A DNA stretch of 64,000 nt. Origin: Rhodospirillales bacterium. GTDB lineage: Bacteria > Pseudomonadota > Alphaproteobacteria > MPNO01 > UBA2964. Made by a program: the position numbers and the translations under genes. Under the pieces are notes generated by a model. That model saw only the letters and a program-made list of their open reading frames with translations, was not told where the DNA came from and did not search any database. This document shows, one piece after another, positions 26,753 through 50,479 of the stretch; position 1 is the first letter of the stretch; each line of letters opens with the position of its first letter. Location of the stretch: NCBI GenBank assembly GCA_038120295.1, contig JAYOLL010000001.1, positions 205,140 to 269,139 on the forward strand, in the 5' to 3' direction.

Positions 26753-27799
26753 TTACCCAAGGGTCGGGTCGATGACGATCTTTCCCTTCACGCCGCCGGT
26801 TTCCAGCATGTCGTACGCATCGTGCAGGGCCGCCAGCGGCATAATGTGGTCGATGGCGCAGCTCAGCCGGCCGGTCCTGGCGAAATCTAGCGCCCGTTCG
26901 ACGTTCTTCCGGCTCGAACCGGCTCCGCCGATCACGCGAAGTCGCCGCAGGTACAGCCGCCTTGCATCGAGTGGAACCGTGCCGCCGCCATGCGCGCCGG
27001 CGGTCACGAGCCTGCCGCTGAAGGCGAGACATTCGAATGCTTTCGGCCAGGTTGTCGGGTCCGAGATGTTTTCGAACACGACATCGGCGCCGCGCCCTTC
27101 AGTGATCTTCATGACCTCTTCGACGAGATCCTGTTCGCGGTAATTGACTCCGTGGTCTGCGCCGAGCGAAAGGCCGAGTTCAACGCGTTCGTCCGCACCC
27201 GCGCCGGCGATCACGGTCGCGCCCATCAGCTTCGCGATCTGGATACCGGTGCTGCCAAGCCCGCCGCCGGCGCCCATGACAAGGACGGTTTCGTCCGGTT
27301 TCAGCCCCGCCTTGTCGTCCAGCAGCTGGATCGCCGTCGGGCAGTGCCGCATGAAGACGGCGGCTTCCTGAAACGAGATATTGTCGGGAATGACGCGGAT
27401 GTTGTCAGCCGGCGCGGCGATGTACTCGGCATAGCCGCCCCAGCGCTGGATTCCCATTGTCGAACCCGACCGGCAATCGGCGTCGTTGCCGGCATTGCAA
27501 TAGACGCATTCGCCGCAGGGGGAGCGCGAAATCACGACGACGCGGTCGCCAGTTGAAATGCCTGAAACCTCGTCGCCTGCCTCGACGACCACGCCTGACG
27601 GGTCGACTCCCGGCACTAGGGGAAGGGCATCGGCCTTGCCGTAATGTCCCTCGGCCGCCTGAACGTCGCGCGTGCGGTTGGCCGTAACGGCATGTACCTC
27701 GACGAGCACGCCGTCCGGTCCGATTGCCGGGCGCTCGACTTCCGCCAACCGCATGACGTCGCGCCAGGGGCCGTATTCCCGGATCAGAATTGCTTTCAT
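26753..27799 (-). CDS. Zinc-binding alcohol dehydrogenase (MDR family)
   Basis: 348 aa. Structural-Zn Cys cluster (CGECVYCNAGNDADC). GAGGGLGSTGIQIAKLMG Rossmann motif. Confidence 0.85.
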   Translation of the reverse strand: MKAILIREYGPWRDVMRLAEVERPAIGPDGVLVEVHAVTANRTRDVQAAEGHYGKADALPLVPGVDPSGVVVEAGDEVSGISTGDRVVVISRSPCGECVYCNAGNDADCRSGSTMGIQRWGGYAEYIAAPADNIRVIPDNISFQEAAVFMRHCPTAIQLLDDKAGLKPDETVLVMGAGGGLGSTGIQIAKLMGATVIAGAGADERVELGLSLGADHGVNYREQDLVEEVMKITEGRGADVVFENISDPTTWPKAFECLAFSGRLVTAGAHGGGTVPLDARRLYLRRLRVIGGAGSSRKNVERALDFARTGRLSCAIDHIMPLAALHDAYDMLETGGVKGKIVIDPTLG

Positions 27800-27826
27800 A
27801 TTGGTCGCAGGCTCCCAAAGTCTGCC

Positions 27827-27896
27827 CCAGCCCTCTCCCCCTCCTGACCACCCATCAGGATACTCTCGTGGGTGGTCAGGAGGGGGAGAGGGCTGG
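27827..27896. repeat. Palindromic intergenic repeat, copy 1 (26-bp perfect stem, 18-nt centre)
   Basis: CCAGCCCTCTCCCCCTCCTGACCACC-CATCAGGATACTCTCGTG-GGTGGTCAGGAGGGGGAGAGGGCTGG. It shares the 28-nt core CCACCCATCAGGATACTCTCGTGGGTGG with the element at 49524-49585. Confidence 0.7.
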
Positions 27897-27914
27897 CACC
27901 AAATTCCGCATAAG

Positions 27915-28337
27915 TTACTTCGGCGGACCGACCGACCAGCGGCGGTTGTCTATCTCCAGCACCCCGTCGGCGAGGTTGAGGGTCATCCGCATGTTGCCCT
28001 CGTTGCGCTGCCACGGGATGACGTCGATTTCGCGCTGGCCGTACTTCGTGTAGGGCTCCTGCATGGCAAGCTCGGTTGCTTCCGCCCGGCTGGCGGCGCG
28101 GAAGATCAGCAGCCCGGTGCCGCGCGTCCAACCCTCGTCATCGCGACACGGACCGGCGGCGAACAGGACGCCGCGTCGCTCCATCTCGCAGAGGAAATCA
28201 TGGTGCTCAAGCCGCATCTCGGCCTGCGGCTTGGGCGGCTCCGGTGGGTTTTCGGCGGGGCGCATCATGATCAGGTAACACTGCTCGCGCTGCAGGCCTG
28301 CCATCAGTTCTTCTGCTTTTTTTTCTGCGTCGCTCAT
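27915..28337 (-). CDS. YciI-like domain protein with a C-terminal extension
   Basis: 140 aa. CYLIMMRP...HHDFLCEMERRGVLFAAGP fits the YciI/Dabb pattern. Confidence 0.5.
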   Translation of the reverse strand: MSDAEKKAEELMAGLQREQCYLIMMRPAENPPEPPKPQAEMRLEHHDFLCEMERRGVLFAAGPCRDDEGWTRGTGLLIFRAASRAEATELAMQEPYTKYGQREIDVIPWQRNEGNMRMTLNLADGVLEIDNRRWSVGPPK

Positions 28338-48034: not shown

Positions 48035-48583
48035 ATGCCGCGGATCGACCCCATCGATATGGACAACCTGACAGAGGAACAGAAGGCCGTCGCCGCCAAG
48101 ATTGTTTCCGGGCCGCGCGGCGAAGTTCGCGGACCGTTCCGTGTGCTGATGCACAGCCCCGAACTGGCCGATGCGGTTCAGACCATGGGAGCCTATGTGC
48201 GGTTTAATGCGGAACTGCCCTGGAAGCTGCGCGAACTGGCGATTCTCGTAACAGCGCGTCACTGGAACTGCTCCTACGAGTGGTTTGCGCACGAAAAGGA
48301 GGCTCAGAAGGCCGAGCTGGACCAGGGCATTATTGATGCCATCCGAATTCGCGAGAAGCCGAACTTCACTGAGGAAGCGGAAGAGGAAATCTGGAATTTC
48401 TGCACCGAGTACTACGCCAACACCAAGGTTAGCGACGCGACCTTCCAGAAGATCATCGACCGGCACGGCAAACGGGGCGCGGTCGACCTCGCCGGGCTGC
48501 TCGGCCATTACAATGCCATTGCGGCGACGCTGAATATCTTCCAGGTGGAAGTGCCGGACGGATCGTCGCCTTTGCCCGATTAA
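48035..48583 (+). CDS. Carboxymuconolactone decarboxylase-family protein
   Basis: 182 aa. Its ATG abuts the stop of the Mo-hydroxylase gene. HWNCSYEWFAHE AhpD-like helix motif. Confidence 0.7.
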   Translation: MPRIDPIDMDNLTEEQKAVAAKIVSGPRGEVRGPFRVLMHSPELADAVQTMGAYVRFNAELPWKLRELAILVTARHWNCSYEWFAHEKEAQKAELDQGIIDAIRIREKPNFTEEAEEEIWNFCTEYYANTKVSDATFQKIIDRHGKRGAVDLAGLLGHYNAIAATLNIFQVEVPDGSSPLPD

Positions 48584-49488
48584 GTCGTCCGGTACTGACG
48601 GGCGACCAGCCAGACGCCGGCGACGACCATTGCGGTTCCATACAGGTGGAACGGCTGAAGCGTCTCGTTCAGGAAAAAGATGGCGAGCGCCGATCCGAAG
48701 ACCGGATGCAGGTTCATGAAGGATGATGTCCGGTTGGGACCGATCCGGACGATGCCCTGATTCCAGCAGGCCCAGGCGACGATCGTACTGAACAGGGCGA
48801 CATAGACGAGGCTTCCCGCCATCGTCGGCGTCAGGCTCATGACGGCGCCGGTGGCCAGTTCCGCGGCGTATGCCGGAACCAGCCAGATCGTTCCGCTGAT
48901 GCACAGCACGAAGAGCAGGGTCCAGGGCGACACCCTGATGCCCGCCCGCTTGAACAGGACCGTGTAAAGCGCCCAGCAGATCACGGCGAGAAACATGTAG
49001 AGATCCCCCAGCCGGATATCGAGCGCCCTGAGAACGGCGATGTCGCCCCGCGCGACGACGAATGCTATGCCGATGAACGAGAGCGCGATGCCGGTCGCCT
49101 GCCAGCGATTGATCAGCTCGCGCAGGATCAGCCAGGAAAAGAACACCGCAACCACCGGAACGCCGGCGTTTATAAGGGCGGCGTTGATCACGGTCGTGTG
49201 CTGGACGCAGAAATAGACCAGCGTATTGCCCACGACGAAAAGGAAGCTCAGCGCGGGGATTGAGCCCGGATTTTCTCTGATCTGAGGCCAGTCGCGCCGC
49301 AGCGCCGGGATGACGAAGGGCAGAACCATGGCGGCGGCCAGCGCGTGCCGCCAGAAAGACAGCGCCACCGGCGGCACGTCAAGATTGGCGAGCCGCGCCA
49401 CGATGAAATTCCCGGCCCAGCACAGAATCGCAAGCGAGCAGAGCGCATACGCGGTTGTCTGCGCCGCGCCGGAATTCTGGTCTGACAT
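48580..49488 (-). CDS. DMT superfamily (EamA-like) transporter
   Basis: 302 aa from ATG 49488. Two EamA repeats, 10 predicted TM helices. Confidence 0.75.
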   Translation of the reverse strand: MSDQNSGAAQTTAYALCSLAILCWAGNFIVARLANLDVPPVALSFWRHALAAAMVLPFVIPALRRDWPQIRENPGSIPALSFLFVVGNTLVYFCVQHTTVINAALINAGVPVVAVFFSWLILRELINRWQATGIALSFIGIAFVVARGDIAVLRALDIRLGDLYMFLAVICWALYTVLFKRAGIRVSPWTLLFVLCISGTIWLVPAYAAELATGAVMSLTPTMAGSLVYVALFSTIVAWACWNQGIVRIGPNRTSSFMNLHPVFGSALAIFFLNETLQPFHLYGTAMVVAGVWLVARQYRTT

Positions 49489-49523
49489 GCTAGGACATGA
49501 TCCGCTTACGCGGATGCGCACCG

Positions 49524-49585
49524 GCCCACTCCCCCACCCGGCCACCCACGAGAGTATCCTGATGGGTGGCCGGGTGGGGGAGTGG
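49524..49585. repeat. Palindromic intergenic repeat, copy 2 (23-bp perfect stem, 16-nt centre)
   Basis: CCCACTCCCCCACCCGGCCACCC-ACGAGAGTATCCTGAT-GGGTGGCCGGGTGGGGGAGTGGG. It contains the reverse complement of the 28-nt core shared with 27827-27896. Confidence 0.7.
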
Positions 49586-49612
49586 GCGGGCGCTGTCTAA
49601 CATGACTTCGCG

Positions 49613-50479
49613 CTAGAACGTCGCGCCGGACTCCAGCCAGGCGTCGACGATTTCCTCGCCGGTGGCGAACCACACATCGTCGTGGCCCTTGATGTAATCC
49701 AGCGCCGATTCGAGCGCCCAGATCCGGTGCGAGACGCCGATTACGAATGGGTGCAGGCAGATCGCCATCACTCGACCGGATTCAGCGCCCTCCATGTAAA
49801 GACGGTCGAACTGCCGCCGCATCATCAATTCGAACTCGTCGCTCGATTTGCCGGTGCGGAACTGCGGGAGATCGTTGATCTCGGTCGAGTAGGGGAGCGA
49901 CACCATTTTTCGGTCGCCCGCGTCGATAAAATAAGGCTGGTCGTCATTGACCCAGTCGCACACGTAATCGAGGCCCTCACCGGCCAGATAATCCAGCGTA
50001 TGCCAGGTCTCCTGCAAGCCGGACCCAAGCCAGCCGCGCGGCTTTCGGCCAGTTGTCTGCTCGATCCGGGCGAGTGTGTCGCGTACCAGCTTTTCGTCGC
50101 CTTCGGGCGGGGTTTCATGAAAAGGCCGCGAGTTGCTCTGGTTGTGACCGAGAAACTCCCAGCCGAGCGCCATCGCGTCTTCCATGATCTCCGGGTAGAC
50201 GTCGCAGACCTCGGAGTTGAGCGTGACCGACGCCCGTATGTCGCGCGACGACAGCGCGTCCATGATGCGGAATACCCCGATCCGCGCCCCATAATCGCGC
50301 TGTGACCAGGAGGAAACCTCCGGGACATGGCCGCGCGAGCCCGGCACCACCTCGTTCAGCGGGAAGAACTCGATATTAGGGATCACCCAGACGGCGACAC
50401 GCGCGCCGTTGGGCCATTTCAGGGTCGGTCGCCGGTTGATCGGCGTGTAGGGAAAAGGCCCGTAGCGGCGCGGCTCCAT
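49613..50479 (-). CDS. Polysaccharide deacetylase-family (PuuE/allantoinase-like) hydrolase
   Basis: 288 aa from ATG 50479 (MEPRRYGPFPYTPINRRPTLKWPNGARVAVWV). NodB-like His/Asp motifs (LGHNQ, CLHPFVIG). Confidence 0.7.
   Translation of the reverse strand: MEPRRYGPFPYTPINRRPTLKWPNGARVAVWVIPNIEFFPLNEVVPGSRGHVPEVSSWSQRDYGARIGVFRIMDALSSRDIRASVTLNSEVCDVYPEIMEDAMALGWEFLGHNQSNSRPFHETPPEGDEKLVRDTLARIEQTTGRKPRGWLGSGLQETWHTLDYLAGEGLDYVCDWVNDDQPYFIDAGDRKMVSLPYSTEINDLPQFRTGKSSDEFELMMRRQFDRLYMEGAESGRVMAICLHPFVIGVSHRIWALESALDYIKGHDDVWFATGEEIVDAWLESGATF

Follow-up and report, generated by a model that had tools for sequence, protein, structure and literature searches.

The 64-kb stretch of DNA analysed here (the window) carries two long palindromes, each lying downstream of one minus-strand gene and upstream of the next, and this arrangement raises the question of what kind of element they are and what keeps their arms complementary. 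An earlier note had read them as copies of a REP/MITE-like, terminator or RNA-stability element whose stem is held in place by selection on secondary structure. Below we describe the two copies and their family, the sites at which copies are gained and lost, and the processes that could account for both.

The two window copies and their family

Both palindromes were confirmed as near-perfect inverted repeats that share an identical 28-nt centre in opposite orientations (Table 1). In copy 1, arms at 27827-27854 and 27869-27896 pair with 100% complementarity over 28 bp, and not over the 26 bp first reported, around a 14-nt loop; the outer 6 nt of its left arm have diverged from the family consensus. 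Copy 2 extends slightly beyond the 49524-49585 first given: its 31-nt arms (49518-49548 and 49563-49593) are 94% complementary, with a perfect part of 25 bp (49524-49548 and 49563-49587), and its loop (49549-49562, CGAGAGTATCCTGA) is the reverse complement of that of copy 1. The 28-nt core, CCACCCATCAGGATACTCTCGTGGGTGG, occurs exactly twice in the window, on opposite strands, and none of 100 shuffled controls contained a match to it, even with up to three mismatches. Between the two copies the arms differ at four positions, all of them compensated on the partner arm. Predicted folding energies for both hairpins lie between -71 and -80 kcal/mol (z about -10) on either strand. As had been noted, the copies share one context, being flanked by co-directional minus-strand genes. 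Copy 1 lies between a YCII gene (27915-28337) and an ADH/quinone reductase gene (zinc-ADH; 26753-27799), in a co-directional cluster of SnoaL-like, beta-lactamase-fold, YCII, ADH, DLH and FAD monooxygenase genes; copy 2 lies between a PuuE-type allantoinase gene (49613-50479; 288 aa) and an EamA transporter gene (48580-49488).

Table 1. Palindromes, associated hairpin and gene junctions in the window
Feature	Position	Strand	Evidence or comparison
Palindromic repeat copy 1 (~82 bp)	27821..27902		Covariance model, 79 bits, E ~5e-14 on both strands
Copy 1 loop, TCAGGATACTCTCG	27855..27868	+	'Master' loop version, unchanged at non-orthologous sites in many genomes
Palindromic repeat copy 2	49515..49596		Covariance model, 80 bits
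Small accessory hairpin ATCCGC-TTAC-GCGGAT	49500..49515		Abuts copy 2
YCII stop (27915-27917) to ADH start (27797-27799), 115 nt	27800..27914	-	Compared with empty loci L082, L083, L085 and L086
PuuE stop (49613-49615) to EamA start (49486-49488), 124 nt	49489..49612	-	Empty in L093/L094; filled in the window and L090-L092

A covariance model built from 57 family members matched only these two copies in the window, and about 190 further copies were gathered beyond it. When one genome per species was searched with the exact central 22-mer, 12 loci were recovered, with 1-3 matches per genome, in Hephaestia, Sphingomonas, Sphingobium, a Croceicoccus MAG and several alphaproteobacterial MAGs; the core is thus found well beyond the two sites to which, on the sceptical reading entertained in the earlier note, it might have been confined. 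Because this search fixed the loop, it was repeated with an arm-only pattern that left the centre free. The arm-only pattern returned 63 loci from IMG/VR, about 55 of them genuine copies. In metagenomes, a pattern of the inner left arm plus half the loop, with the outer arm and the right arm left free, returned 105 loci representing 80 distinct complete sites; salt-marsh samples held at least 12 distinct sites with master-like loops. Only 3 of 72,556 plasmid records matched, all of them from Sphingomonadales. No bona fide phage genome matched, and the IMG/VR matches are chromosomal gene transfer agent (GTA) clusters, so phages were set aside as an obvious vector. With well over 100 distinct sites, the proposal of a repeated REP/MITE-like palindrome family 3' of genes is supported, and this wide distribution, together with the shuffled controls, rejects chance or a local duplication as the source of the shared core. 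Copy number appears low: besides the 1-3 exact-core matches per reference genome, we found about three copies on a 1.76-Mb replicon and two in the 64-kb window.

The family consensus consists of an arm, GCGGCACCGGCCCGCTCCCCCACCCGGCCACCCA, a loop of 13-19 nt that varies in sequence as well as in length, and the reverse complement of the arm, TGGGTGGCCGGGTGGGGGAGCGGGCCGGTGCCGC, for a total of about 82 nt. Family-wide the arms are 34 bp long, their outermost positions are the least conserved, and conservation in the flank profile ends about 9 nt outside the GCCC motif. Because the copies were collected by sequence pattern, conservation looks higher than it is where the patterns fixed a position; at positions that they left free, arm divergence is approximately 0.16 changes per site. 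The loop diverges from the window version by 0.31 per site, about twice as much as the arms, with random sequence at 0.58. The C/G runs of the arms hardly vary from order to order, and this holds for the sample that left them free as well; the variable 'spacer' positions on the C-rich arm are A, T or G and almost never C. The window loop itself recurs unchanged at unrelated sites in many genomes and in this sense behaves like a 'master' version. The earlier picture of a conserved 28-nt core between variable outer stems is therefore reversed at the level of the family, in which the arms are conserved and the loop is variable and invertible; that picture arose because only two young copies, from two arm sub-variants, had been compared.

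Rfam gave no match anywhere in the window at gathering thresholds, and at permissive E-values returned only generic miRNA-precursor hairpin models, all well below threshold. A full-text literature search for the arm sequences found only unrelated eukaryotic primer matches, and neither a paper on triplex repeats (PMC4666352) nor the RepRanger REP survey covers the family or the clade. The family, which the earlier note could not place in a named class, accordingly appears to be previously undescribed; it is distributed in Sphingomonadales and related Alphaproteobacteria, including the lineage of the window itself.

A subfamily that includes copy 2 carries a small hairpin on one side, TGATCCGC-TYAC-GCGGATG, whose copy 2 version has the transcribed-strand sequence CATCCGC-GTAA-GCGGATCA. 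The fetched DNA contains 11 perfect instances, each of them directly adjoining an element and always in one polarity; elsewhere in the window such a hairpin occurs once more, within the coding sequence of a sulfatase. We considered whether this small YTAC-loop hairpin is a pre-existing target for insertion and rejected the idea, as it is absent from empty sites and, in the fetched DNA, occurs solely next to the element. Copy 1 is accompanied by no more than the loop and 3' half of this accessory hairpin (CTTATGCGGAAT; window 27905-27909 and 27923-27927). There the 5' partner, TCCGC, is formed by the last YCII codons, and a 5-bp stem enclosing the stop codon can form. On either side of most chromosomal copies lie small A-tract/stem/T-tract hairpins resembling terminators, and the flanks are mosaic. 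A further palindrome was seen at L085:7413-7528, where a nested C/G-tract structure between convergent genes gave a weak match to covariance model R1 (E ~0.01); part of it, CCCTCTCCTCCCGGGAGGAGAGGG-TT-GGGGAGAGG, resembles the E. coli intrastrand-triplex (TMECO/PIT) consensus quoted in PMC4666352.

Gain and loss of copies behind stop codons

Judged from the comparison of orthologous sites, both window copies were shown to be young, lineage-specific insertions that are absent from the sister lineage. The YCII-ADH gap, 115 nt in the window, measures 2-11 nt in four orthologous loci with the same gene order, whose ADH orthologs show 78-88% protein identity. In the window the segment holds CTTATGCGGAAT, which is half of the small accessory hairpin, then the palindrome, and then a GGGAG Shine-Dalgarno sequence for ADH, the last being newly supplied by the flanks of copy 1. 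At the PuuE-EamA junction the gap is 13 nt in the closest relative (MAG JAYOEY01) and 124 nt in the window and in same-species contigs; JAYOEY01 carries the family elsewhere (L007, L011 and L012). The extra DNA at both window sites consists of the palindrome and short flanks. No target-site duplication was found at YCII-ADH, at PuuE-EamA or at the GTA g8-g9 junction, in comparisons with relatives 88-93% identical in protein sequence, a distance that could hide duplications of very few bases. Two of the relatives in which the YCII-ADH junction is empty have a small, free-standing GIY-YIG nuclease gene (96-102 aa; L085:5735-6025 and L086:6581-6889) a few kb away from it; no link between these genes and the element was seen.

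The same alternation of filled and empty sites was found in GTA clusters. By Pfam, about 38 of the IMG/VR loci were identified as RcGTA-like head-tail clusters, in which copies are found at three junctions, namely behind the portal gene, behind the capsid gene and ahead of the tail-tube gene. Which of these are filled differs from genome to genome, and the g9-g10 junction, used as a control, is always tight. The junction between g8 and the tail-tube gene is filled in L046, L063 and L039, is empty in L035, where the upstream gene is near-identical, and holds an internally deleted remnant in L024. The junction between capsid gene and g6 is occupied in most of the genera sampled, a retention that could reflect host-level selection. 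Behind the portal gene, L040, L015 and L064 carry the element and L074 is empty; this junction is a hotspot that attracts different palindromic repeats. At this site L061 has an imperfect palindromic repeat that is about 130 nt long and unrelated to the element (CCGTTCGTGCTGAGTAG...CTACTCAGGACGAACGG). In L013 the element survives as a remnant with an internal deletion (GGTGCC/GGGGAGCGGGCCGGCACC), and behind it lies a palindrome of a third kind, long and C/G-rich (CCCCTCCCTGACTAGGGAGGGGGCGGGGGTGGGTTGGCC ... its reverse complement). Between the portal and protease genes of the RcGTA-like clusters of these Sphingomonadales, alignment also suggested a small conserved antisense ORF (L040:3798-3976 and orthologous stretches of L015, L064, L061, L074 and L013), with a predicted hydrophobic peptide (MRPRLRIIAAAFAAALLAFTFALPFLKG...). 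Internal deletions, truncated arms or remnants were found at L003, L010, L013, L019, L024, L033, L034 and L039, and L008 differs from its ortholog L002 by three uncompensated changes. Together, these comparisons show that family copies are gained at short junctions just after stop codons and decay by point changes and internal deletions. Many MAG and metagenome contigs were also found to start or end inside the element (L007, L011, L012, L080, L081, L096, L130, L157, L163, L194 and L199), and the element is a recurrent breakpoint for short-read assembly of MAGs and metagenomes.

Across the family the position relative to genes follows the same pattern, with genes around the copies called by a crude GC3-based caller. 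Among the 48 copies of the IMG/VR and genome set with genes on both sides, 42 lie between co-directional genes, four between convergent and two between divergent genes; the independently ascertained metagenome set gave 27, 14 and 3, respectively. In the latter set the median distance from stop codon to element is 35 nt, the distance to the next start being far more variable, and the annotated plasmid copies begin 24 and 33 nt after a stop. The strand of the loop relative to transcription is random in both samples (14 versus 13 in the metagenome set, 9 versus 14 in the IMG/VR and genome set).

These positions bear on the suggestion, also made in the earlier note, that the element is a terminator. 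Neither window copy is followed by a T-run on either strand, and a scan with promoter and terminator consensus sequences found nothing there. Copies also separate gene pairs that in relatives are tightly coupled, and occur within RcGTA-like head-tail clusters. Since the distal genes of such operons need to be expressed, efficient termination at the element is unlikely on the evidence of its sequence and placement. A canonical bidirectional U-tract intrinsic terminator is present elsewhere in the window, at 1448-1489 (AAAAGAAAAACCCCCGGGC / GCCCGGGGGTTTTGTTTTT), showing that the genome does use ordinary terminators of the U-tract type, from which the element differs. With no U-tract and a place inside operons, the element finds no support as an intrinsic terminator.

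Arm symmetry and its possible causes

The earlier note had taken compensatory covariation to imply selection on the structure. The covariation itself is strong: in the 57-copy alignment 95.1% of cells are paired and 14 of the 34 pairs change on both sides, a level reached by none of 500 shuffles and approached by no slid control. The step from covariation to selection is not secure. Reverse-complement loops (1-3 substitutions apart) were found in three orthologous pairs, L015/L040, L032/L039 and L063/L072, and in the first two of these all arm differences are exactly compensated. Exchanges of A-T for T-A pairs, or the reverse, occur often in the arms although no wobble pair can serve as their intermediate, and G-U cells are not enriched in the core (14, against 27 other mismatches). 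Because loops flip, G-U cells are not enriched, orthologous copies decay and both orientations are tolerated, the covariation need not stem from selection on RNA, and symmetrisation of the inverted repeat at the DNA level fits the facts at least as well as selection on structure. Template switching between inverted repeats during replication has arm homogenisation and spacer inversion as its signature (PMC8604942), and it has been proposed to give rise to stems that pair perfectly, to compensatory changes spanning several bases and to inverted loops (PMC8794818). Much the same would be expected if the arms recombined with each other, or if a second copy, aligned either way round, served as donor for ectopic conversion. 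The 19-nt loop of L063, which is the same as that of the distant L072 and unlike that of its close relative L046, hints at conversion or re-insertion. We also observed that L040 (site C) and L039 (site D), which represent separate GTA junctions, differ from their orthologs L015 and L032 by an identical pair of compensated arm changes (CCGGCCC to CCAGCCC, and CCCCCACCC to CCCCCGCCC) and by a loop flip, which suggests concerted change among copies within a lineage. That the arms are about twice as conserved as the loop, with near-invariant C/G tracts, argues for some remaining constraint on arm sequence.

We consider it probable that the element is a dispersed, non-autonomous mobile palindrome of REP/REPIN/MITE-like kind, mobilised in trans, made symmetric by copying between its arms at the DNA level, and probably acting when transcribed as a REP-like intercistronic hairpin and not as a terminator. 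Under this proposal, an enzyme acting in trans would insert copies into short junctions close behind stop codons, transposition being a step that we infer from presence/absence polymorphism. Template switching between the arms, or their recombination, would copy one arm onto the other and so keep the palindrome symmetric, yielding apparently compensatory double changes and flipping the loop; such flips would explain why the two window copies show opposite loop orientations in the same transcriptional context. Transcription would produce a hairpin of approximately -75 kcal/mol with no U-tract, which would not end the operon. By analogy with REPs, and from its position, this stable intercistronic hairpin would probably block 3'-to-5' exonucleases or be processed, raising the relative stability of the upstream cistron, and this would probably explain the persistence of insertions at gene 3' ends only.

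The left arm and half-loop run into the right arm, a small deletion or the contig end in all 107 metagenomic occurrences, none of which has a long internal segment behind the left arm. No solo arms were found at IS ends in the three matching plasmid records, and no unpaired arms border an IS-sized segment in the first ~0.9 Mb of fetched DNA. By these metagenome, plasmid and fetched-DNA searches no autonomous parent element with the same termini was found. Local tblastn of ~1.0 Mb of fetched DNA for RAYT and IS200 TnpA proteins gave no significant match, which is a weak negative, and no transposase family recurs near the copies, the ORF clusters within 4 kb being GTA genes and ordinary metabolic superfamilies. 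The element is thus non-autonomous, with no gene linked to it in cis.

Several observations weigh against a mobile palindrome of this kind. The searches produced no mobilising enzyme, target-site duplication or defined target sequence; arm conservation and invariant C/G tracts across orders argue for constraint beyond that expected of neutral selfish DNA; the occupancy of the capsid-g6 junction could mean selection on the host; and the copy number appears low, unlike that of typical REP/REPIN populations.

The first is that the element is a structured RNA selected by the host, serving as an intercistronic mRNA stabiliser, a processing site (e.g. for RNase III) or an attenuator, in which the stem is kept by selection on RNA pairing and the repeat nature is secondary. 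The strong covariation and the very stable predicted fold speak for it, as do the consistent place after stop codons and the retention of the same GTA junctions in several genera, especially behind the capsid gene. However, both orientations are equally frequent relative to transcription, loops are unconstrained and flip, G-U pairs are not favoured over other mismatches, orthologous copies decay (L008, L024, L039 and L013) and close relatives do well with tight, element-free junctions. A function that required merely a stable stem would, moreover, leave the near-invariant arm sequence across orders unexplained. We regard this explanation as unlikely.

A second alternative, which we judge distinctly unlikely, is something new: a mobile or self-propagating palindrome whose trans-acting enzyme recognises the C/G-tract hairpin plus the one-sided YTAC-loop small hairpin, or a switch between G-quadruplex/i-motif and hairpin that hosts have recruited at intercistronic junctions such as those of GTAs. 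The conservation of the tracts across orders, the C-avoiding spacers and the small hairpin beside the element are compatible with such readings.

The invariance of the C/G runs would also be accounted for if the element were a DNA-level site (duplex, cruciform or G-quadruplex/i-motif) for a host protein, either a nucleoid or topoisomerase site as proposed for BIMEs or a recombinase site, with functional C/G tracts. The C-avoiding spacers preserve the tract pattern GGG-N-GG-NN-GGG-N-GGGGG-N-G-N-GGG, with which a G-quadruplex would be compatible, independence of orientation is what a symmetric DNA site would show, and other C/G-tract palindromes occur at similar places, one of them like the E. 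coli triplex-motif repeats (PMC4666352). Full complementarity of the arms at variable positions, however, is required neither by a G-quadruplex nor by a simple duplex site, the strong preference for gene 3' ends and the rarity of copies in divergent promoter regions point to a transcription-related tolerance, and no candidate binding protein was found. From the sequence patterns at hand we take such a site to be quite improbable.

That the element is a classical MITE, an internally deleted IS derivative moved by the transposase of that IS with its arms as terminal inverted repeats, is highly improbable: the ~34 bp inverted repeats around a short spacer, the size of ~82 bp, the presence/absence polymorphism and the breaking of assemblies at the element would suit it, but three filled/empty comparisons showed no target-site duplication, the outermost arm positions are the least conserved, the opposite of what transposase-bound termini would show, and the searches for internal segments (0 of 107 metagenomic occurrences), for arms at IS-sized segments in plasmid records and fetched DNA, and for a recurrent transposase were all negative.

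A mobile palindrome kept symmetric by arm copying would matter in several ways. With it, Sphingomonadales and related Alphaproteobacteria, in which REP/RAYT-type systems are poorly documented, gain a palindromic repeat family not described before. The element also offers a natural example of a DNA palindrome that generates textbook 'compensatory covariation', which is of consequence for RNA-motif discovery pipelines: since flipped loops and fully compensated arms occur at orthologous sites, covariation alone is no proof of a selected RNA structure. As the element breaks short-read assemblies and sits in operons, including GTA clusters, it is relevant to MAG quality and to the possible tuning of polycistronic expression. 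Its mobilising activity, if found, could be a new kind of hairpin-recognising enzyme.

Relation to known palindromic repeats

One close comparison is with REPIN-RAYT systems (Bertels and Rainey; PMC3116915, PMC3337134). Like REPINs, the element is extragenic and non-autonomous, with two inverted conserved arms and a less conserved spacer that form one long hairpin, with symmetric mutations that preserve pairing, and with a location mainly at gene 3' ends. It differs in that its arm, GCGGCACCGGCCCGCTCCCCCACCCGGCCACCCA, is C-rich and cannot pair with itself, whereas REPIN units are small palindromic REPs, and in that its flank profile contains no conserved GTAG-type tetranucleotide. REP/REPIN sequences number tens to hundreds per genome, against the few exact-core matches per reference genome seen here, and no RAYT was detected for the element with the weak probes used. 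RAYT Group 1 is rare in Alphaproteobacteria (PMC5581495). REPIN-RAYT systems are mostly inherited vertically, whereas the element is common to several orders with an identical 'master' loop, and this sharing across orders suggests horizontal spread.

Classical REP/BIME sequences of enterobacteria and pseudomonads are similarly stable, GC-rich extragenic palindromes found after stops and inside operons, in mosaic association with other small hairpins, and they have been proposed to protect upstream mRNA from 3' exonucleases. They are, however, imperfect palindromes of 20-40 nt, where the element has near-perfect 34-bp arms in 82 nt; REPs occur in hundreds of copies per genome and the element in tens at most, and its sequence is different, with no known protein partner. 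MITEs such as Correia/NEMIS, RUP and Nezha are also short and non-autonomous, with terminal inverted repeats and insertion polymorphism, and are sometimes co-transcribed with their neighbours; in contrast to these, the element has no target-site duplication and no parent IS, and its termini are less conserved than the arm interior. Homogenised arms, multi-base 'compensatory' changes and spacer inversion recall quasipalindrome correction and template-switch mutation (PMC8794818, PMC8604942, PMC7202029); those papers describe a mutational process and not an element family, and the process accounts for the upkeep of a palindrome but not for its dispersal. Finally, a GC-rich hairpin just after a stop, often beside genuine A-tract/T-tract terminator hairpins, recalls Rho-independent terminators, from which the element differs in its missing U-tract, a stem about three times the usual length, its place inside operons and its repeated sequence. 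Elements of this general kind are common in bacteria; set apart by the absence of the self-palindromic units and GTAG of REPINs, of the duplication and parent IS of MITEs, and of the U-tract of terminators, the element described here is filed as a variant of the 'bacterial interspersed palindromic repeat'.
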